64,000 nt of DNA from an uncultured Actinomycetota bacterium (lineage in GTDB: Bacteria; Actinomycetota; Actinomycetes; CAVWCF01): positions 864,001 through 928,000 of the forward strand of contig CAVWCF010000001.1 of assembly GCA_963753435.1 (NCBI GenBank), written 5' to 3'. The notes below the pieces were generated by a model, which was not told the DNA's origin, made no database searches, and saw only the letters and a list, made by a program, of their open reading frames with translations. The position numbers and the translations under genes were made by a program. This document shows, in pieces, positions 25,154 to 45,540 of the stretch (position 1 is its first letter; every line of letters starts with the position of its first letter).

Positions 25154-25583
25154 GAGCGCATCACCCCAAGTCAGAAGTCATGGGAGTCCGCTACTACCCA
25201 TGCGCGATCCGCTCCGCTCGGTGATCGCCCGTCGGACGGGCTGTCGCCACAAGTGCGACAAGCGTGCCGCCGCCGGTCCCCGGTTCACTCTCTGCAGTTG
25301 TCGGGCGGGCACAGATGTGCCCAGGGCTGCCCCGCTGGCGGTGAGGCCCCCCTGCCGTGTCTTGTGTGACACAGGCGACAGAAGTGAATCGTGTGAATGG
25401 TGAGGGGTCAAGGGGGCAGGCACCTAGGACAGGTATCGAGTCGGTCACGGCCAGCCTCAGTCACCCATTCGGGCGAACCACGACACCCGCTAGCGGGATG
25501 CCGGTTTCGGAGGGTCGGCGATGGCTACGCTTGCCCCACACGGCCCGAACGGGGAATCGAGGGTCGTTGCCAACGGAGGAGCG

Positions 25584-25952
25584 ATGAGCAGCCGCGAACG
25601 GGCGCTCGGCGACGTGGTCGCCGGGTTGCTGGACGCGCGCCTGGACCCGGCCACCGACCGCTTCGACGCCGAGTTGGCGGCCGCCGAAGCCGATGGGCGG
25701 ATCGACGCCCAGACCGCCCGGTTGCTGCGCTGGTGGCAGCGTGAGTCGCTGCGCGGCCTCGTGGACCATGCGCGCCGCACCATTCCGGCCACGATCGTTG
25801 CCTTGGATCAGGCCAACACCGCAGCGCGCACCGGCAACGAAGAGTCGGCTGCAGCGTGGGCGCGGGCCGAGGAGCCCAGCCGCGCGCGGACGATAGACCT
25901 GGACCAACGCCGGCAGGCGTTCGTAGCCGGACTTACTGAGGCGGACGCATGA
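25584..25952 (+). CDS. Hypothetical protein
   Basis: SD GGAGGA before the ATG; ATGA-coupled to the next gene; LRWWQRES motif; family not recognised. Confidence 0.75.
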   Translation: MSSRERALGDVVAGLLDARLDPATDRFDAELAAAEADGRIDAQTARLLRWWQRESLRGLVDHARRTIPATIVALDQANTAARTGNEESAAAWARAEEPSRARTIDLDQRRQAFVAGLTEADA

Positions 25953-26620
25953 CGACCCTGCGATTGCTCCCCGAGTTGGAGCAGGACCTGCAACGAGTGC
26001 CCGGCGTTCAAGCTGCCAGCGTCGTGACGGGCCCGGATGCGGTGCCCGTGGAGATCCACGTCCTGGCGGCGCCGACCAGAGCCGCCAAGCAGATAGTGCG
26101 CGACATTCAGTCCTTGGCCCAGGCTCAACACGGCCTGGCTATTGACCACCGGATCGTCTCCGTCGTGCAACTGGACGTGGACGACAGCCCAGCGCCGGCA
26201 CCGGAGACGCCCAAGAACGGCCACCACAGCCTCGAACAGCAGGCGCCGCCGCGTCCGGCCATCGCATCGATCATGGTCCGCTCAGCCGGCCCGGAGGCCG
26301 AGGCGGTGGTCGTCCTCGCCGCTTCGGGCCTCACCTTTGAGGGACGAGCCACCGGGGCTTCCGGCCTGGGGCACCGATCCCGGCTGGTGGCCAGGGCGAC
26401 CCTGGACGCCCTGGGCGAACTACTGGGTCACTCCGTCGAAGTGGACAGTGCGGACATCGTCGATGCCGGTCCGCATCGGGTCGCGGTCACGGTGCTGACC
26501 ATCCTTGCCGCCCGCTCGGGGGAACAACTCGTTTCGGGATCGGCGGTGGTTCGCTCTGATGAGGCGGACGCGATCGCCCGCAGCGTCCTGGATGCCCTGA
26601 ACCGCCGCTTGGCCGACTAG
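25949..26620 (+). CDS. Conserved hypothetical two-domain protein
   Basis: EIHVLA...KQIVRDIQS...IDHRIVSVVQ, a Pro-rich linker, and a C-terminal alpha/beta domain ending ARSVLDALNRR; SD GAGG. Confidence 0.85.
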   Translation: MTTLRLLPELEQDLQRVPGVQAASVVTGPDAVPVEIHVLAAPTRAAKQIVRDIQSLAQAQHGLAIDHRIVSVVQLDVDDSPAPAPETPKNGHHSLEQQAPPRPAIASIMVRSAGPEAEAVVVLAASGLTFEGRATGASGLGHRSRLVARATLDALGELLGHSVEVDSADIVDAGPHRVAVTVLTILAARSGEQLVSGSAVVRSDEADAIARSVLDALNRRLAD

Positions 26621-26874
26621 TCGTCAGCCAAGCTCGGGTCCGTCAGCACCGGCCGGATGGCCTTCAATCCCCGACCGAGGAACGCTGACGGCGTGTTGTC
26701 TCTAATCACCTGAACCATCATCGCCTCGGTGATCGGCGTGTCCTCGCCGTACTTGTCCATGAGGATGCTGTTCAGCCCGTCGCGGGTGTTCCGGCGAAAC
26801 GGGAAGGGAGTAGCGCTGATGCTCTTGTCGTACACGGCCTTGGCATTCTCGGCCCACTTGAAATCCGGCATCAC
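26617..26874 (-). CDS. Small helical protein, PCP_red/DUF2621-like
   Basis: SD AAGGGAGG; pattern W..NAK......P.PFR......ITE.......TP. Family resemblance judged by eye. Confidence 0.7.
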   Translation of the reverse strand: MMPDFKWAENAKAVYDKSISATPFPFRRNTRDGLNSILMDKYGEDTPITEAMMVQVIRDNTPSAFLGRGLKAIRPVLTDPSLADD

Positions 26875-26952
26875 GGCCTCCCCTTCGCGCTGACTGTAGA
26901 AGCGCCCCGCGCCGGATCAAAGCACGGGGTCGCCATGGTGTGTTCGTGTTGC

Positions 26953-27729
26953 CTACGCCGCAAGCGTCACTTCCCGGCGGCTGGGGGGAAGGTTGAGCAG
27001 CCGGCGCCAGAGGAGCGCACCGAGCAGAACCGATACGAACACAACTAGCGCAAGCACCAACAGCGGCACGCTGCTGCCCTGCGCGCCGTTGCTGATCGCC
27101 CACACCAGGAACCAGAGGCCACTGGATGCGGAGATGGTGGTGAATCCGTGCAGCACCTGGGCACGAGTGCGCAGTAGCGCCGCAAAGAAGTACATCGTGG
27201 CCCCGGTGATGAGCAACTGCAGGAAGATCACCGGATCGCCGAAAGAGTTGAAGGCCAAGACGATCGCAGCCAGGTTGACCACCGACAGCGGTACGAAGTA
27301 CGGACCCTGGCGCAGGTAGAAGACGGGCAGCGCCACAACCGCCGCGACGGAGACGGCTACCACCCAAAGCTGGTCGCCGCCAATGGCCAGCGCGATGCAG
27401 GCTTGGCCGGCGGTAATCAGCCAGTAGAAGAGGAAATCGGCGAAGCCGTAGCCGTTGGTGCTGGCCGTCTCCTCAGTCAGGTACCAGTTGTCCATCGTGT
27501 TCTGGGCGGCCTCGAACGCCCCGCCGGCCGAGAGCAGGCAGGCGGCGGCGAAGAACAGGAAGGGGTTGTACGTCACTTCCTGCAGATAGGCCCAGTTCCA
27601 CGAGACGGCGGCGACGATGGCCAGGGGGACCAGCAACGCGTAGGCGTGCGCAAGCAACACCCACACGGCTTCACCGCCGCGGATGTGGACATCAGCCCAG
27701 ATCCGCTTTGTCGGTGTCATCGTCGCCAC
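26953..27729 (-). CDS. Hypothetical multi-pass membrane protein
   Basis: About 7-8 hydrophobic helices; SD AAAGG; co-oriented in an apparent three-gene operon. Confidence 0.8.
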   Translation of the reverse strand: MATMTPTKRIWADVHIRGGEAVWVLLAHAYALLVPLAIVAAVSWNWAYLQEVTYNPFLFFAAACLLSAGGAFEAAQNTMDNWYLTEETASTNGYGFADFLFYWLITAGQACIALAIGGDQLWVVAVSVAAVVALPVFYLRQGPYFVPLSVVNLAAIVLAFNSFGDPVIFLQLLITGATMYFFAALLRTRAQVLHGFTTISASSGLWFLVWAISNGAQGSSVPLLVLALVVFVSVLLGALLWRRLLNLPPSRREVTLAA

Positions 27730-27738
27730 CGCCTTTCG

Positions 27739-28041
27739 TCACTTCTCGCGATTTACCGTTTCCGCTGCCTGCTTCAGCGCGTCGGCGACCACGGCCGTTT
27801 CGGCCCCGATCGCATCGGCGATCTGCGTCGCGATGGACTCCACGGTGCCGTGGATGCCCTGGACAACGGCCTTGCTCGTGTCCCGCGCCGCCCCAGTCGC
27901 TTCGTCAGAAACGCCCATGCTCGACAGGACCGTCAACGGGATCTCCGCAGCAGCAAGGGTCGTGTTCTCGATCGCATCCCCGAAGTTGCGGAACGCGAGG
28001 AGGAAGAACCGGTCTTCACCGCTCTGCTTGGCCTGTGCCAT
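27739..28041 (-). CDS. Hypothetical amphipathic helical protein
   Basis: SD AGGAGGTG before ATG 28041; gapless similarity to 30399..30770. Confidence 0.8.
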   Translation of the reverse strand: MAQAKQSGEDRFFLLAFRNFGDAIENTTLAAAEIPLTVLSSMGVSDEATGAARDTSKAVVQGIHGTVESIATQIADAIGAETAVVADALKQAAETVNREK

Positions 28042-28089
28042 CTCGCACCTCCTGATCGTTCCGGGCGATCCGCTTGATCGACCGGGTCT

Positions 28090-28118
28090 TGTATACCGTC
28101 GCAGTGAACGCATGTCCA
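28090..28118 (-). promoter_or_regulatory. Putative sigma70-type promoter of the leftward island operon
   Basis: Minus strand TGGACA (28118-28113)-N17-TATACA (28095-28090). Confidence 0.55.
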
Positions 28119-28143
28119 CCATTTCAGCCTACGAACGTTCACT
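28103..28143. promoter_or_regulatory. Two 18-bp FabR/DesT-like operators
   Basis: AGTGAACGCATGTCCACC (28103-28120) and AGCCTACGAACGTTCACT (28126-28143). The outer arms CAGTGAACG/CGTTCACTG form a perfect 9-bp inverted repeat. Confidence 0.65.
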
Positions 28144-28314
28144 GAGTGTTCCTGCCCCGATGCTGGCCCCCGAGCACGGACCGCGGCACCGCCTTTGGTC
28201 CCGGGAGTGCGATGCCGGAGGACCCTTTGGTCCCGGCGACTTGTCGGTAAGGCTGACCCTGAGCCCGACGTCGGATTACCCTCGGCGCCCGGGTCAGCCA
28301 GGGGAGGCACAAGG

Positions 28315-29595
28315 ATGAAGACTGTTTCGGCCACTCAGACCGGTGGCGGTATCGACCAAGGCAGTGTTGACCAGGTCAGCGGGACCGGCATCAGCCGGAC
28401 CCCCATCTGGCCCGACTACTTCGCTCGCCACGGCCAGCCCGATGCGGCCAACTGGCAGTACCAGGGGTACCTCAGCGACACCGCGCGGGTCTGGCGGGCC
28501 TACTACAACCTGGTGCTGGGCCACCCGAAGGTCGCCTTCGTCGGCATGCGGCACTTCTACCAATCGCTGGTTTACCGGATCTCCAACGAGCACACCGGGG
28601 ATGCGCTCGCGCCGTTGATGACGTTCGTGACCCCGTTCGGCATGGTCGCGACCCCGTTCGCTTCCCTGCTCGCGGTGGCCACCGTCCCGCCCTTCCTCAA
28701 GCGGGTCAAGCACATGGAAATCCCGCCGCTGTTCCGCCCGTTCAACCGGCGCGGCTGGTCCAACTACAACATCATGCTCGTGACGATGTTCACGATGCAC
28801 AGCTACAAGCAGTACCGCATGGGCTGGAGCCCGGACCACGCGCTCAGGCACTCCTCCAAGGTGTTCTGGCATGACTTCTTCGAGACCCACCTGCCCGAGG
28901 GCCACCGCGCCACCAAGCAGTACGGCGTCATGAAGGACGGCGTGCTCAAGGGCGAGATCCCCGAAGACTCGTTCATCATCAAGCCCACCAAGGGTGGCGC
29001 CGGCCAGTACCTGCGCACCTGGGAATGGGACCCCACCGAGCGCCTCTACACGTGCACCGACTCCGAGCGCAGCCCCGAAGAGCCGGAGGTCTGCACGCCG
29101 GAAGAACTGCGCGAACACATCCTCGGCATGTACGTGAACGCCGTCATCGAGAAGTGCGAGCGCATGCGGTCGCCCTTCCCCATCAGCAGCTTCCGGGTGA
29201 TGACCCTGAACATCGACGGCGAAGCGGAGTTGATCGCCGCCGTGTTCCTGCCTGCGGACGAAGGCTCGAACTCCACCGCGTACTTCGACCTGGACACCCA
29301 CCTCATCAACTACGAGGACAGTTCCATCGGCAAGCCGATCCGGCCCCAGAGCGAGGGACCCTGGACCGGCATCGAGGTCCCCGAGTTGAACGATGTGATC
29401 GAGGCCTGCATCGCGCTGCACAACGAACTGCCCGCCCACGTCGAGGTGAGCTGGGACGTCATGCTGACCGAAGACGGTCCGGTGTACCTGGAAGGAAACA
29501 TCTTCCCGCCCGGCTGCGACTACAAGTTGACGATCTTCAAGAAGTGGGAGAACTTCAAGTACCTGAAGGATCGCCTGCTCGGCGCCTACCGCTGA
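28315..29595 (+). CDS. ATP-grasp domain protein (ATPgrasp_ST-like C-terminus)
   Basis: IIKPTKGGAGQ, SFRVMT, VSWDVMLTEDGPVYLEGN; SD GGGGAGG/AAGG. Confidence 0.8.
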   Translation: MKTVSATQTGGGIDQGSVDQVSGTGISRTPIWPDYFARHGQPDAANWQYQGYLSDTARVWRAYYNLVLGHPKVAFVGMRHFYQSLVYRISNEHTGDALAPLMTFVTPFGMVATPFASLLAVATVPPFLKRVKHMEIPPLFRPFNRRGWSNYNIMLVTMFTMHSYKQYRMGWSPDHALRHSSKVFWHDFFETHLPEGHRATKQYGVMKDGVLKGEIPEDSFIIKPTKGGAGQYLRTWEWDPTERLYTCTDSERSPEEPEVCTPEELREHILGMYVNAVIEKCERMRSPFPISSFRVMTLNIDGEAELIAAVFLPADEGSNSTAYFDLDTHLINYEDSSIGKPIRPQSEGPWTGIEVPELNDVIEACIALHNELPAHVEVSWDVMLTEDGPVYLEGNIFPPGCDYKLTIFKKWENFKYLKDRLLGAYR

Positions 29596-29640
29596 CGCAG
29601 GCCGTCGTAGCATCACGGCATCCCGACAGAGGAGGTCGCG

Positions 29641-30402
29641 GTGGCCAGTCGCGCCGAGCAGAAGGCTCGCACTCGAAACGCACTGATCCACTCCTGGCTC
29701 AGACTGATCGGGGACGGGGCCAACTTCGCCTCCGTGAGTCTTCGCGAGGTCGCCAAGACCGCCGGCGTTGTTCCGACTTCGTTCTACCGGCACTTCGGCG
29801 ACATGGACGAGCTTGGCCTGGCCGTGGTCGACCAACTCGGCAGTGACCTGCGCCGCCTCGGCCGATTGTCGAAGGACCCGGATACCTCCGTATCGGCGAG
29901 CGTGCAGCAGGGCGTCGAAGCGTTCGCGGAGTACGTCACGGAGAACGCGGACCTGGTTCGTTTCGTCAACCAGGCACGGACCGGGGGCAACTCACCGCTG
30001 CGCAAGGCGATCGACAATGAACTTGAGTTCTTCAGCGCCCGCATCGCCAGCGCCCTGGGCGACGTTCGCCCAGAGTTGGATACTGCCGCTCGCGATGTGG
30101 TCGCCGAGTTGGTCATCGCGGTCCTACTGGAGAGCACCCCGGCGATGCTTGAAGCCGACGCGGAGCAGTTGAGTGCAGCTCGTTCCGGCCTGGAGCAGAA
30201 GATTCACATCGTCCTGCTTGGGGCCGCCCAATTGGCCGAGGAATCACAACAACCCCAAGCGGGCAAGCGCGCCCCCACCAAAGCAACCGGGCCCCGGACC
30301 AGCAAGGCAACGAGCGCCAAGCGGGCAACCGCAGAACGGGCGGCCAAGAAGCCGACCAAGGCGGCCAAGAGCACCCGCAAACCCGCGGGCGGACCGGCAT
30401 GA
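29641..30402 (+). CDS. TetR-family regulator, FabR/DesT-like, with Lys/Ala-rich tail
   Basis: RAEQKARTR...FASVSLREVAKTAGVVPTSFYRHFGDMDELGL; SD GAGGAGG. Confidence 0.9.
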   Translation: MASRAEQKARTRNALIHSWLRLIGDGANFASVSLREVAKTAGVVPTSFYRHFGDMDELGLAVVDQLGSDLRRLGRLSKDPDTSVSASVQQGVEAFAEYVTENADLVRFVNQARTGGNSPLRKAIDNELEFFSARIASALGDVRPELDTAARDVVAELVIAVLLESTPAMLEADAEQLSAARSGLEQKIHIVLLGAAQLAEESQQPQAGKRAPTKATGPRTSKATSAKRATAERAAKKPTKAAKSTRKPAGGPA

Positions 30403-30770
30403 ACCTGGTCGAGCAGGTCGACGCCTACTGGGGACTGATCCACCGGTCCTTCGACAATGCCACCGAGGCGGTGGAACACGTCCACCAACGCTTCGCGGAG
30501 ATGTCCTTCGACGTCCTGCACGAGATCGGACTACCCAAGGACGTGACTGATCGGGCCAAGGCCAAGCACGGGCGCGTGATGCACACCCTCTACGACGGCG
30601 TCCGATTCACCAACGCCGAGATCGGCGACTTGGTAGTGCGGCAGTTCGATCAGATCAGCCGGTTCGCCAGCAACCTGAACGCCAGCCTGCTGCCGAGCCC
30701 GACAAACGTTCCCGATCAGCCGCGCACCGGACGCGGTGGCGTCCCCGGGGAGACATCCACGTCCAAGTAG
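30399..30770 (+). CDS. Hypothetical amphipathic helical protein
   Basis: ATGA-coupled to the TetR gene; apparent paralog of 27739..28041. Confidence 0.78.
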   Translation: MNLVEQVDAYWGLIHRSFDNATEAVEHVHQRFAEMSFDVLHEIGLPKDVTDRAKAKHGRVMHTLYDGVRFTNAEIGDLVVRQFDQISRFASNLNASLLPSPTNVPDQPRTGRGGVPGETSTSK

Positions 30771-31561
30771 GTCCGCTGCGCGTCGGCCACCTGCGGCGGG
30801 TCGTCCGGACCGAACACCGCGTCGAACATCATGTTCGCCCCGGTCCAGCCGAGCACCGAAGCCAGCCCCGCCCCAGCCGGTGAGTGGTAGTCGAGCCCCT
30901 TGTAGGCCTTCTTCATGACCGCCAGGCGCCGCGCCTCAACCCGAGCCGCATCGGTATGCGCCACCGGGTCGGCGTCGCGGTAGACGTTCGTCCACTCCGC
31001 TGTGACGTCGAGCAGGAACTCCTTGCCGGCTGGGATGGCAGCCGGGTCGAGATAGAGCAAGACGCCGACGCTCGACCCGACCTGCAACGTGAAGTAGGGA
31101 CTAGGCGGCGGTTCGGGGCCCAGCCGATACGACGTCAGCGTCGGCCAATGACGCGCGACCACGTCCGCGTACCCGAGCATGTGCCGCCCGTAGTAGGTCT
31201 GGTCGAACGCAACATCTCCGACCGGAATGAAGTCCGCACCGATGATGCAGACCTCCGGCATCTCGAAGATCACTGTCGTCAACGCCGGAAAGTCGTAGCC
31301 CGTGCCCGGCCAGGCGTGGGCCAGGTGTTCGTTCAACATGCCGCTGCGATGGAACCGATACAACGTCGACCGCTCTATCTTGGCGGCGGTGTAGGAGTCC
31401 ACGTCCACCGCTCCGGCCTCGTTGTCCGGGCCGGCCTCGAACCGGTTATGGGCGATCAGAGCCGGAACCGGAAGTGGCTGCCATTGCAGGGCGTCTCCCA
31501 GGATCTGCGCCTGGGCGGCCCGCAGACCGAGGGTGTCTTCGCGCTCGATCTCGTAGGTCAT
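30716..31561 (-). CDS. Ferredoxin-dependent bilin reductase / red chlorophyll catabolite reductase-like protein
   Basis: WPGTGYDFP, GADFIPVGDVAFDQTYYGRH, PPPSPYF, W..VYRDA, D..SPA...LASVLG pattern. The ORF is solid; the fold is inferred by eye. Confidence 0.6.
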   Translation of the reverse strand: MTYEIEREDTLGLRAAQAQILGDALQWQPLPVPALIAHNRFEAGPDNEAGAVDVDSYTAAKIERSTLYRFHRSGMLNEHLAHAWPGTGYDFPALTTVIFEMPEVCIIGADFIPVGDVAFDQTYYGRHMLGYADVVARHWPTLTSYRLGPEPPPSPYFTLQVGSSVGVLLYLDPAAIPAGKEFLLDVTAEWTNVYRDADPVAHTDAARVEARRLAVMKKAYKGLDYHSPAGAGLASVLGWTGANMMFDAVFGPDDPPQVADAQRTYLDVDVSPGTPPRPVRG

Positions 31562-31577
31562 GACCAAACTATGTCGC

Positions 31578-31859
31578 TTACTCGGCGGGAGGCTGGATCC
31601 GGTACTCCGCTCGAACCATTTCGATCCGCGCGATCACGCGGTTGCGCAGCCCCTCGGGCGCGTGGTCCGCGCCGCAACATCGGGCGACCAGCGCCATGAC
31701 CGCCTGCTCAAGGCCGTACTCCCGCAGGCATGGACCGCACTCGTCCAGGTGCACCCGAATGGAGTCAAGCGTGGCGTGGTCGATTTCCCCGTCCAGGTAC
31801 TCGTAGACCTGCGCGAGGACCGCGTCGCAGTCAACGTCGTGGGGATGGCCGCAGCTCAT
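31578..31859 (-). CDS. rsrA: Zinc-binding anti-sigma factor RsrA/RshA
   Basis: [11 protein letters not shown]...HLDECGPC (ZAS motif HxxxCxxC); ATGA-coupled to the sigma gene. Confidence 0.95.
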
Positions 31860-43193: not shown

Positions 43194-44155
43194 CCGGCCC
43201 AGGGAATGGTGTCGACCGTGGCCGCCGATGCGATGGCCGCTGGACTCGTCGCCAGCGACATTTCCAGGACCTCACGGCGGCGGGATGGGTCCATCATGTT
43301 GGCGCCAAGTACGGCGAGGTCGTCCGGGCCCGGAGTGACCAGCCGCACCGTGCTGCCCGCATCGCGCAGCCGGCCCGCCTCCTTGAGGAGCCGGCGGGTG
43401 ATGGAGCGACGGAAAGCTCGCTCGGCTCGTGCGCCGGTCGTAGTCGGGTTGTCCGGGCGCAGCGACGCCATCGGCGCGAACACCCAGACCTCATCCAGGC
43501 CCAGCGCTCCCAGCGTGTCGGCACTGGCACTGGACATCGTGCCGCTGTCTACATAGCGGCGCCCAGCGATCGTCACTGGGGAGAACCAGCCCGGGATCGC
43601 GCAGGACGCGCGCACAGCTTCGCTCAGCAGTGCCGGAGGTGAGCCCTCCCGCCCGAACACCGTGCGCCTTCCGGTGTCGTAGTCCATGGTCACGATCCAC
43701 GTGCGCGGTTGCGTCGGCCACGTGTCGGCCACGGCTTCGATGAGGTCGGAGACAGAATCCAGCGGTCGCCGCCCCTGGGGCAGCAAGGCGGCCAGCGCTG
43801 CGGCCGGGTGAACCCGACGTGGCTGCCGCAACGTTCGCCAGAGGAGGGGCACGGATCCGAACCCCGGCCTCGGAATGCTCGGCAACGCGCCACCCGTGGC
43901 TTCTGCGTGATCGAACGTTCGTTGCGCCAACGGCCCGGTCCGAACCGGCTGATCCTGCTCATGAGCCAACAGCTCGGAGACTTGGACACCAGAGGCCAGC
44001 AGGGCCGCCAGCACGCTGCCGGCCGACGTGCCCTGGATCGTGTCGAAGCCACCAGGGGAAAGCCCGCGCTCGGCTTCGAGCGCGGCCAGCGCGCCGATCG
44101 TCCACGCCGCACCGAGCACGCCGCCGGCACCGAGAACCAGGCCACGGACCGTCAA
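43190..44155 (-). CDS. Patatin-like phospholipase
   Basis: GAGGVLG, GTSAG, ASCAIPG, YVDSG (DGG variant); TTG start overlaps the upstream stop. Confidence 0.9.
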   Translation of the reverse strand: MTVRGLVLGAGGVLGAAWTIGALAALEAERGLSPGGFDTIQGTSAGSVLAALLASGVQVSELLAHEQDQPVRTGPLAQRTFDHAEATGGALPSIPRPGFGSVPLLWRTLRQPRRVHPAAALAALLPQGRRPLDSVSDLIEAVADTWPTQPRTWIVTMDYDTGRRTVFGREGSPPALLSEAVRASCAIPGWFSPVTIAGRRYVDSGTMSSASADTLGALGLDEVWVFAPMASLRPDNPTTTGARAERAFRRSITRRLLKEAGRLRDAGSTVRLVTPGPDDLAVLGANMMDPSRRREVLEMSLATSPAAIASAATVDTIPWAG

Positions 44156-45540
44156 CGCAGCGTCCCGAGCAGTTCGTTCATCGACTCGGTCAGGCAATCC
44201 GCCAGGACCGCCAGGTCCGGGACAGCGTCCCGGTCGGCGGTCAGCCCGAAGGAGACGTTGCCGTCGTACGACGTGCAGCCGATACCCAGGCCTTGCGCCT
44301 TGGCCAACGGCACCACCGGATATGCCGCCAGCATGCGAGCCCCAGCGGCGTAGAGCGGGAACTGCGGCCCCGGCACGTTGGTGACCAGCACGTTGTAGAT
44401 GCGGCGAGACAGGCCCGATGCGCTTCGGGCCGCCAGTCCGTGGATGGTCGACGGGGCGAATCCCGCGAGGCTGACCAACGCGTCCGCGCCGACCGCCTGT
44501 CCGGACTCCTTGTGCCCAGTCATCCGGTAGGAGATCTGCTGCAGACGCACCACCGGGTTGGGCTCACCCACCGGAAGGTCCACGAAGAGCGGCGCCACCC
44601 GGTTGCCGCCGGTTTCGTCTTCCGGACCCCGGACGCTGACCGGAACCATCGCCCGGATCGTGGTCGATGACGTCACCGGTTCACCCCGGGTCAGCATCCA
44701 GGCGCGCAGGCCCCCGGTGACAGCCGCCAGGATCACATCGTTGACGGTGCCGCCATGCTGCTTGCGGACCCGCTTGTAATCGTCGAGCAGCGTGTCCACC
44801 CGCGTGAACCGGCGCTGCCCGGAAATGGTCACGTTCCAAGAAGTCGCCGGCGCCGGCCGAGCTGCCCGACGTGCAGCCGACATGACCGCGCCGGTGTTCT
44901 TCAGCAGGCTCATCCCGGCCTGGCCGATGTCCGACGCCCCCCGTCCGACCGCATCCAGCAGCCTGGTCGGGCGCCTGGTGAACTCCCAGACCGACCCGGC
45001 CCACAGCGTCAGCGAGCCCGGGGGCGGAGTTGGCACCCAAGTGTCCGGCGGGACCTCGCGTGGATCCGGCGAGACATCCAGGATCACCTGCCCGATGTCG
45101 ATGCTGCTCACGCCGTCGACCATGGAGTGGTGGGTCTTGGTCAGGATCGCGAAGCGGTCATCGCTGAGGCCCTCGACCAGATACATCTCCCACATCGGTC
45201 GGCTGCGGTCCAAAGGCCGCGACATGATTCGCGACACCAGCTCGTCCAGTTGCTCCAGGCTGCCGGGCGCGGGCAGCGCTGACCGGCGTACGTGGAACGT
45301 GACGTCGAAGTCCTCGTCGTCCACCCACACCGGGGGCAGCAGGCCCCCCGGGACGGACTTCAGCTCCTGCCGGAAACGAGGTACGAAGGCGATGCGCTCC
45401 GAGATCAGGCCCAGCAGTTGTTCGTAGTCGAAACCCTCGGTCGGCCGTTCGAACAGCGCTACCCCGCCGATGTGCATCGGGGTCGTCTCGTCCTCCAGGT
45501 ACAGGAACGAGGCGTCCAGTGAACTGAGCCGATCCGCCAC
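44152..45540 (-). CDS. Wax ester synthase/diacylglycerol acyltransferase
   Basis: RLSSLDASFL, PMHIG, PLDRSRPMWE, HHSMVDG, TNVPGP; SD GGAGGAGG. Confidence 0.96.
   Translation of the reverse strand: MADRLSSLDASFLYLEDETTPMHIGGVALFERPTEGFDYEQLLGLISERIAFVPRFRQELKSVPGGLLPPVWVDDEDFDVTFHVRRSALPAPGSLEQLDELVSRIMSRPLDRSRPMWEMYLVEGLSDDRFAILTKTHHSMVDGVSSIDIGQVILDVSPDPREVPPDTWVPTPPPGSLTLWAGSVWEFTRRPTRLLDAVGRGASDIGQAGMSLLKNTGAVMSAARRAARPAPATSWNVTISGQRRFTRVDTLLDDYKRVRKQHGGTVNDVILAAVTGGLRAWMLTRGEPVTSSTTIRAMVPVSVRGPEDETGGNRVAPLFVDLPVGEPNPVVRLQQISYRMTGHKESGQAVGADALVSLAGFAPSTIHGLAARSASGLSRRIYNVLVTNVPGPQFPLYAAGARMLAAYPVVPLAKAQGLGIGCTSYDGNVSFGLTADRDAVPDLAVLADCLTESMNELLGTLR

Follow-up and report, generated by a model that had tools for sequence, protein, structure and literature searches.

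The window analysed here is a 64,000-nt stretch of contig CAVWCF010000001.1 from an uncultured Actinomycetota bacterium, whose genome (2.17 Mb, 98% complete) is called G000 below; coordinates are those of the window unless a genome or locus is named. Between rsrA and a pair of HD-GYP genes the window holds an island of seven genes, A to G (Table 1). Six of these, A to F, form a module with its own operator that recurs in two phyla, and G encodes a divergent protein of the red chlorophyll catabolite reductase (RCCR) family, added locally. A reading made earlier from the sequence only had called the same seven open reading frames (ORFs), which have a G+C content of 0.78-0.92 at third codon positions. 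C, B and A leave a 273-bp gap leftward and D, E and F leave it rightward; F overlaps the stop codon of E, and G is convergent with F, with a 55-bp overlap of the 3' ends. Pfam and NCBIfam profiles placed A, B, C, F and G in no family over its cut-off, and scans for sigma-70 promoters and terminators stayed at chance level. The leader of D carries an exact 13-bp direct repeat (28192 and 28224) and an inverted repeat with 18-bp arms (28251-28299).

Table 1. Genes and operator sites of the island, in window coordinates.
Feature	Position	Strand	Description
Gene A	26617..26871	-	84 aa, unnamed conserved helical protein; possibly a small adaptor
Gene B	26953..27729	-	258 aa, unnamed membrane protein, at least 6 hydrophobic segments
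Gene C	27739..28041	-	100 aa, C/F family, helical and amphipathic; first behind the operator
Operator 1	28103..28120	.	18-bp pseudo-palindrome, kept upstream of C/F genes in both phyla
Operator 2	28126..28143	.	weak, half-conserved; 23 bp from operator 1
Gene D	28315..29595	+	426 aa, discrete ATP-grasp subfamily; hydrophobic helix 104-122
Gene E	29641..30402	+	253 aa, FabR/DesT-like TetR; Lys/Ala-rich C-terminal tail
Gene F	30399..30770	+	123 aa, second C/F family member
Gene G	30716..31561	-	281 aa, divergent RCCR-family (bilin-reductase-fold); attached in the present lineage only

Insertion site and distribution of the module

The block had been taken for an accessory island that separates rsrA from the HD-GYP pair. 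In two relatives from the same family (G001 and G002), rsrA lies about 250-300 bp from the gene that borders the island on its left, with only a 24-aa ORF between them, and the module stands on another contig as A-B-C-C'-D-E-F without G. Since rsrA and the left-hand gene are close together there while the module is elsewhere, the site in G000 is an insertion. The separation of the two neighbours also stood, with the correction that two further genes (25521-25952 and 25949-26620) stand between the HD-GYP pair and the island. The GC content of the island is 0.647 against 0.680 +/- 0.015 for the genome (rank 9 of 343 windows). In agreement with the sequence-only reading, no integrase ORF, att-like repeat or target duplication was seen at the island. 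Recent acquisition was rejected because convergent stop codons overlap at the left edge, repeats are absent and a metagenome relative (L070) keeps the order D-E-F-G-rsrA, with 81-98% amino acid identity over this common part; the insertion looks old. The Lys/Arg-rich 24-aa ORF of the relatives' empty site (L012:4820-5075; window position 31561-31578), which we take to be bL37-like, was not found in G000 by tblastn and may have been displaced by the insertion.

D is rare. Its homologs number 67, only 14 of 1.84 billion representatives match it at an E-value of 1e-30, and it occurs in none of 300 other genomes of the phylum. The D loci, 12 from genomes and 52 from metagenomes, belong to Actinomycetota, Gammaproteobacteria and unlabelled contigs. 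The 12 D-carrying genomes, G000 included, are eight actinobacterial ones from two classes and four gammaproteobacterial ones. In the 16 loci with at least 3 kb on either side of D (long loci, not dereplicated), D has a C/F gene nearby at 10, A and E at 9 each, B at 5, Fe_bilin_red and PHA_gran_rgn genes at 4 each and G at none. These neighbour counts give a core of A, C/F, D and E, with B, and make G a local addition. The core is clustered in Actinomycetota and Gammaproteobacteria alike. Linkage of B is mostly actinobacterial; of the 11 carriers besides G000, 8 have B, and in the four Gammaproteobacteria it is not linked to the module. G is linked to the module in G000 and one close relative only, and its orthologs in 400 genomes of the class number six, all in one genus.

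Co-occurrence in other genomes had been set beforehand as the refutation test, and clustering was found in two phyla with the operator conserved upstream. The proposed block of seven is reduced to a module of six, since G adjoins D in 0 of the 16 long loci and has no operator. In a quick tree of D, made from 44 rows after removal of 17 fragments or duplicates, the actinobacterial copies are grouped (99) among gammaproteobacterial ones. Behind distant D homologs (L060:8201-10273; also L061, L062, L065 and L071) stand genes for a TIGR01777-like oxidoreductase and then for a PapA5-like acyltransferase, and the module is lacking at these loci. In genus g10, which has small genomes (L108-L110), G follows an NAD-dependent epimerase that is 33% identical to one directly behind A in L019 (L019:4137-4976); g10 genomes hold two to four RCCR matches and no D.

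Operator, regulator and probable ligase

The symmetrised consensus of the two window sites, scanned over 428 kb of D loci, gave 40 matches, compared with 5-11 in shuffles. A matrix was built from 18 of the 40 sites, which were picked by sequence and not by position, with G000 excluded. On this matrix operator 1 scores 23.4 bits and operator 2, which is kept in the close relatives L029 and L033, scores 9.2 bits; of the two operators that had been proposed for the shared gap, the first is borne out and the second is a weak site. The 23-bp tandem spacing is also found at an unlinked C paralog of the genome (G000:C1:1330639/1330662) and in L040. Among 37 distinct sites of at least 18 bits, 18 of which had trained the matrix, 34 are followed by a C/F domain within 350 nt, two precede A and one precedes a PHA_gran_rgn gene.

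Of the five best matrix matches in G000, two precede the C paralog at C1:1330.6k, and the others fall before the one at C1:424k, at window position 28103 and at an 80-aa ORF on C2, so that four of the five precede C-family genes. A sixth match (19.3 bits) lies inside G. Two 0.6-Mb shuffles gave no match of 19 bits or more, and the neighbours examined for the six top genome matches include no fab or des gene. Because a matrix trained without G000 finds its two unlinked C paralogs, the regulon would comprise the C/F family and not fab genes. A top-scoring site (24.8 bits) overlaps the start of the unnamed 80-aa ORF (G000:C2:155141-155392), which is likely a further regulon member.

Gene E is nearest to E. 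coli FabR (NF008402) with 137.2 bits, below the cut-off of 151, and a gammaproteobacterial ortholog reaches 149.5 bits. Its residues 3-178 align to Pseudomonas DesT (PDB 3lsj) with an E-value of 5e-28, helix-turn-helix and ligand domain included. The description of E as FabR/DesT-like survives as homology over both domains; its score stays under the FabR cut-off, and its probable targets are not fabAB or desaturase genes. Linkage and the homology to DesT suggest that E is the protein that binds the operator sites. The 18-bp site presumably resembles the DesT/FabR operator. DesT senses acyl-CoA, and E could by homology be a lipid sensor as well. DesT binds a palindromic site (PMC3462791).

Gene D scores 38 bits with ATPgrasp_ST (PF14397), above the cut-off of 31.4. 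Its predicted structure (pLDDT 89) has an ATP-grasp fold with 229 Foldseek matches at an E-value of at most 0.001; LysX/ArgX rank on top (Z 12.8 and 12.3), nearly tied with Ddl, RimK and peptide ligases. Residues K182, K223, E279, R294, D381, E393 and N395 are invariant (55 alignment rows for the ATP/Mg residues), and we assume from Ddl that all of them but R294 serve ATP and Mg binding. With this nucleotide- and metal-binding set unchanged, D probably works as a carboxylate-amine ligase.

Helical proteins, accessory genes and the possible pigment link

C and F show no BLAST similarity, but iterative hidden Markov models started from either converge on the same 79 ORFs. This makes the paralogy real, as had been supposed. 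Up to four copies occur per locus and five clear ones in G000. Amphipathicity exceeds that of shuffles for helix 1 in 35 of 51 members and for helix 3 in 27 of 50, and Lys/Ala-rich tails are present in 20 of 76 C/F ORFs and also in E. The sole near-invariant residue is a Gly; of 52 members, 28 have His at one helix position and 22 at another, and C lacks both. Four of the 67 D homologs, as well as those in L020 and L038, end in a C/F domain, and these fusions tie C/F and D functionally. Complex prediction for D with F scored 0.00 twice, in runs made without controls, and is uninformative. Searches for storage enzymes found WS/DGAT in all three actinobacterial carriers tested and PhaC in both gammaproteobacterial carriers tested, with no PhaC match in G000. 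The only WS/DGAT match of G000 lies in the window at 44152-45540 (-), 13 kb from the island. Sequence searches of the PDB with alignments of D, C/F, A and B gave nothing meaningful; matches to designed helical proteins were set aside as composition noise.

The 18 aligned copies of A are 45-73% identical. Its proposed relation to PCP_red or DUF2621 was not upheld: profiles match 0 of the 18 members, hhalign gives 1.3% to six fused PCP_red tails, and PF11084 has no match at A in five genomes. Fusions of DUF169 with PCP_red are found in L022, close to A, and in L106, where a B paralog follows, and in G000 an A paralog follows a DUF169 gene without such a tail (G000:C1:824679-825922, L098), near an ABC1 kinase. 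This last arrangement hints that the A paralog may play a role equivalent to the tail, the profile tests being negative. B has no Pfam or PDB match. Its near-invariant polar set in 121 sequences (H28, E73, Q76, N77, D80, D98, Q109, Q191 and H194), together with its hydrophobic segments, would be expected of a membrane enzyme. Near a B paralog (G000:C1:1251580-1255083, L097) lies a gene for an NAD(P)H-binding protein that is 31% identical to a Rhodobacter plasmid protein, which looks like an 8-vinyl reductase BciA; an ortholog of this NAD(P)H-binding protein stands 3.5 kb from G in carrier genome G332.

G had been described as a bilin-reductase-like gene closing the block, and profile alignment places it in the RCCR family. 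In hhalign comparisons it reached 92.9 and 95.4% (E-values 4e-7 and 2e-8, about 222 columns) with two overlapping alignments of PF06405-positive host proteins, and 1-3% with three other reductase alignments. It also falls with RCCR clusters in the Atlas (0.95, at a low recognition value) and matches HY2 weakly (E 0.028). G itself stays below the PF06405 and PF05996 cut-offs, and 2 of 40 members of its family match weakly; its single-sequence model has a pLDDT of 32, and a plasmid search with G gave no match. Invariant residues are Val97, E78, H79, H82, E100, D224 and H226. Val97 stands opposite an Asn of HY2, presumably at the position of Asp105 in PcyA. Pre-1 enzymes likewise lack the PcyA residue set, as stated in the part of that report available (PMC10151467).

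Bilin-reductase-fold genes are attached to D more than once. In 4 of the 16 long loci a Fe_bilin_red gene with a PCP_red-like tail accompanies D; it belongs to a different subfamily from G and is carried by gammaproteobacterial clusters. These arrangements include G001, in which a gene of this subfamily lies directly behind a second D copy. A gene of the gammaproteobacterial cluster type is found in G000 directly behind a 1221-aa gene and a DHO_dh-like gene (G000:C1:501860-510915, L140). By eye we read the 1221-aa gene as a pyruvate:ferredoxin oxidoreductase; a C/F paralog follows 3 kb on, and a large oxidoreductase of similar kind also lies near the D cluster of L023. G000 has four bilin-reductase-fold genes besides G and no match to heme oxygenase.

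Two of these four stand in an RCCR-Rieske operon outside the window (C1:1563861-1571141; L141:1862-9142), with the order RCCR, alpha/beta hydrolase, Rieske oxygenase, second RCCR-like gene, unknown gene, SDR, membrane protein and Amdase-family gene; a CN_hydrolase, an HMGL-like gene, an aldehyde dehydrogenase and a second Amdase lie upstream. The operon is conserved in G332 (L144) and is a candidate chlorophyll-catabolite pathway. By profile its SDR is adh_short and its hydrolase PETase-like; we assume the former to be NYC1/NOL-like and the latter chlorophyllase-like. Close homologs of the Rieske gene occur in 10 of the 12 carriers, three gammaproteobacterial ones having them next to the cluster or to B, and in none of 250 gammaproteobacterial class genomes, which is a class-level contrast. 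RCCR genes are present in 10 of the 12 D carriers (8 of 8 actinobacterial, 2 of 4 gammaproteobacterial) against 13 of 298 class genomes. A gammaproteobacterial RCCR enrichment (0 of 249 class genomes, one unscored) was dropped after an order-level control. Taken with the lineage controls, the counts describe the module as an accessory confined to RCCR-rich lineages, and they count for less than the physical linkages. The earlier suggestion of a tetrapyrrole link gains from the family of G, the Fe_bilin_red genes in clusters and the RCCR-Rieske operon. A and C/F were not found in five RCCR-positive genomes, in searches without a positive control. A Staygreen search matched nothing anywhere, controls included, and is therefore uninformative.

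Interpretation and comparison with known systems

The explanation we prefer, with a probability of roughly 0.35, is that the six-gene module and the local RCCR-family gene provide an operator-controlled coat for lipid inclusions together with a ligase for handling chlorophyll catabolites. C/F genes have the operator in front of them in both phyla, unlinked copies included, and binding of E to it would be switched by an acyl-CoA, possibly one derived from phytol. C and F would coat droplets of neutral lipid or polyhydroxyalkanoate (PHA), made by WS/DGAT in actinobacterial hosts and by PhaC in gammaproteobacterial ones. As the fusions indicate, a C/F domain may tether D at the droplet surface, where D could activate a carboxylate, e.g., a tetrapyrrole propionate, and form an amide. 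G or another bilin-reductase-fold gene would reduce the ring-opened tetrapyrrole delivered by the unlinked Rieske-RCCR operon, with A and B as putative accessory adaptor and membrane enzyme. The outcome would be storage or detoxification of hydrophobic breakdown products of chlorophyll-type pigments at the inclusion, in hosts that are not photosynthetic. Amphipathic helices 1 and 3, the Lys/Ala tails, the PHA_gran_rgn neighbours and the storage enzymes of the hosts speak for a coat. A bolder version is rather improbable, namely a plastoglobule-like droplet in chlorophyll-eating, non-photosynthetic soil or sediment bacteria, with a repressor responding to phytanoyl- or acyl-CoA, a new coat-protein family under its control, and, borne by the coat, an ATP-grasp enzyme conjugating ring-opened or dephytylated pigment and partnered with RCCR-family reductases.

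Several observations weigh against a coat with a pigment function. Seven of the 16 long D loci are without A and E, and several D copies have no module neighbours. Orthologs of G occur in 2 of the 11 other carriers, both unlinked, and among 12 genome-wide operator matches none lies before G or near the RCCR operon. The Rieske protein of that operon is of the VanA_C type, without a PaO Pfam match. RCCR is found in 41 of 150 genomes of the order of carrier G337, compared with 2 of 4 carriers in the Gammaproteobacteria, and some of the actinobacterial carriers are related to one another, so lineage explains part of the co-occurrence, and only 1 of the 13 RCCR-positive genomes has D. As for the coat, only 11 of 52 C/F members have an amphipathic helix 2, phasin Pfam families match 0 of 52 (E 0.1) and the Atlas clusters are unnamed. 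Amphipathic helices are also found in soluble bundles, and WS/DGAT is common in actinobacteria.

An alternative is a general lipid-inclusion regulon without a pigment role, in which E senses ordinary fatty acyl-CoA and induces phasin-like C/F proteins, D modifies a droplet lipid or protein, and G and the other reductase genes are passengers that came to lie nearby in lineages rich in them. The operator tracks C/F, A and PHA_gran_rgn and not reductases, G is unlinked elsewhere, the order-level control removes the gammaproteobacterial RCCR enrichment, and distant D copies adjoin the PapA5-like acyltransferase. What such a regulon leaves unexplained is that D is joined by reductase genes of two subfamilies, in three distinct arrangements, that D is absent from all 300 phylum genomes whereas lipid storage is widespread, and that all eight actinobacterial carriers, from two classes, have RCCR; we regard it as slightly less probable than the preferred explanation. 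The top fold matches LysX/ArgX, which use a carrier protein, point in another direction, with C/F as soluble pigment-binding or carrier proteins and D ligating a tetrapyrrole acid or amino acid onto C/F or A as in LysX/LysW, so that a phototoxic intermediate is sequestered while G-type reductases act and no droplet is formed. The D-C/F fusions and the frequent His residues would suit such carriers, as would the clustering of known pre-PcyA reductases with bilin-binding globins, which the available part of one report describes (PMC10151467). Yet a carrier should keep a reactive residue, and the family keeps only a Gly, with both His missing from C; PHA_gran_rgn neighbours and Lys/Ala tails are also unaccounted for, which makes this alternative unlikely. 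Very unlikely, in our view, is a module for stress or storage that involves neither lipid nor pigment, in which D would ligate peptides or polymers, by glutamylation as in RimK or by ligation of amino acids, the resemblance of E to DesT not extending to the ligand. RimK, L-amino acid ligase and ligases of ribosomally synthesized and post-translationally modified peptides match the fold of D almost equally well and E is under the FabR cut-off, but the alignment of E to DesT includes the ligand domain and the reductase and granule-protein neighbours would have no explanation.

Chlorophyll disposal by heterotrophic bacteria is a largely open question, according to a recent preprint (bioRxiv 10.64898/2026.03.19.712979). 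The module offers a defined regulator with its operator, a ligase whose catalytic residues are intact, and three families without a name, for expression and assay. If the plastoglobule-like version were true, a regulated compartment for pigment catabolism would be known from heterotrophs for the first time, and three protein families and the ligase chemistry would be new. The pigment link aside, an undescribed inclusion-coat regulon would extend across two phyla. A literature search, which most subscription papers were beyond the reach of, found no known system with these parts; the novelty lies in the composition of the module, whose proteins fall outside the phasin and FabR families and whose function would be that proposed above.

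Compared with ATPgrasp_ST, LysX/ArgX, RimK and Ddl, D has the same fold (Z 11-12.8, root-mean-square deviation 3.6-4.4 over 215-245 residues) and the invariant Lys/Glu/Asp/Asn set, and differs in sequence (9-14% identity), in its own helical N-terminal domain and in the C/F fusions. G resembles RCCR (PF06405) and ferredoxin-dependent bilin reductases (FDBR, PF05996), including pre-PcyA, in matching RCCR-like profiles and, weakly, HY2, but it has no Pfam match of its own and an apparently non-canonical active site. Unlike the pre-PcyA clusters, as far as these are covered by the source cited above, G has no heme oxygenase or globin beside it. The available text on a proposed prokaryotic degradation of chlorophyll a counts RCCR homologs as rare, 1,193 in 160,110 genomes, led by Actinomycetota, and treats only homologs of plant enzymes and no such gene cluster (bioRxiv 10.64898/2026.03.19.712979). 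Like DesT and FabR, E is homologous over both domains and tied to an 18-bp pseudo-palindrome; its probable targets are C/F, A and PHA_gran_rgn genes instead of fabAB or desBC, and it has an extra Lys/Ala tail and a score under the FabR cut-off.

A parallel in circuit design is offered by the phaD-phaFI system of Pseudomonas and by PhaR-phaP systems. Phasins are small, amphipathic, heterogeneous and regulator-controlled, and PhaF has a histone-like tail (PMC5658603). The present module differs in that C/F match no phasin family, synthase and depolymerase are lacking, G000 has no PhaC match, and an ATP-grasp enzyme, a membrane protein and reductase-fold genes are added. On the other hand, a regulator is again linked with helical proteins that are small and amphipathic and in part bear histone-like tails, and a PHA_gran_rgn neighbour accompanies some D loci, so that the logic of the circuit resembles phasin control.

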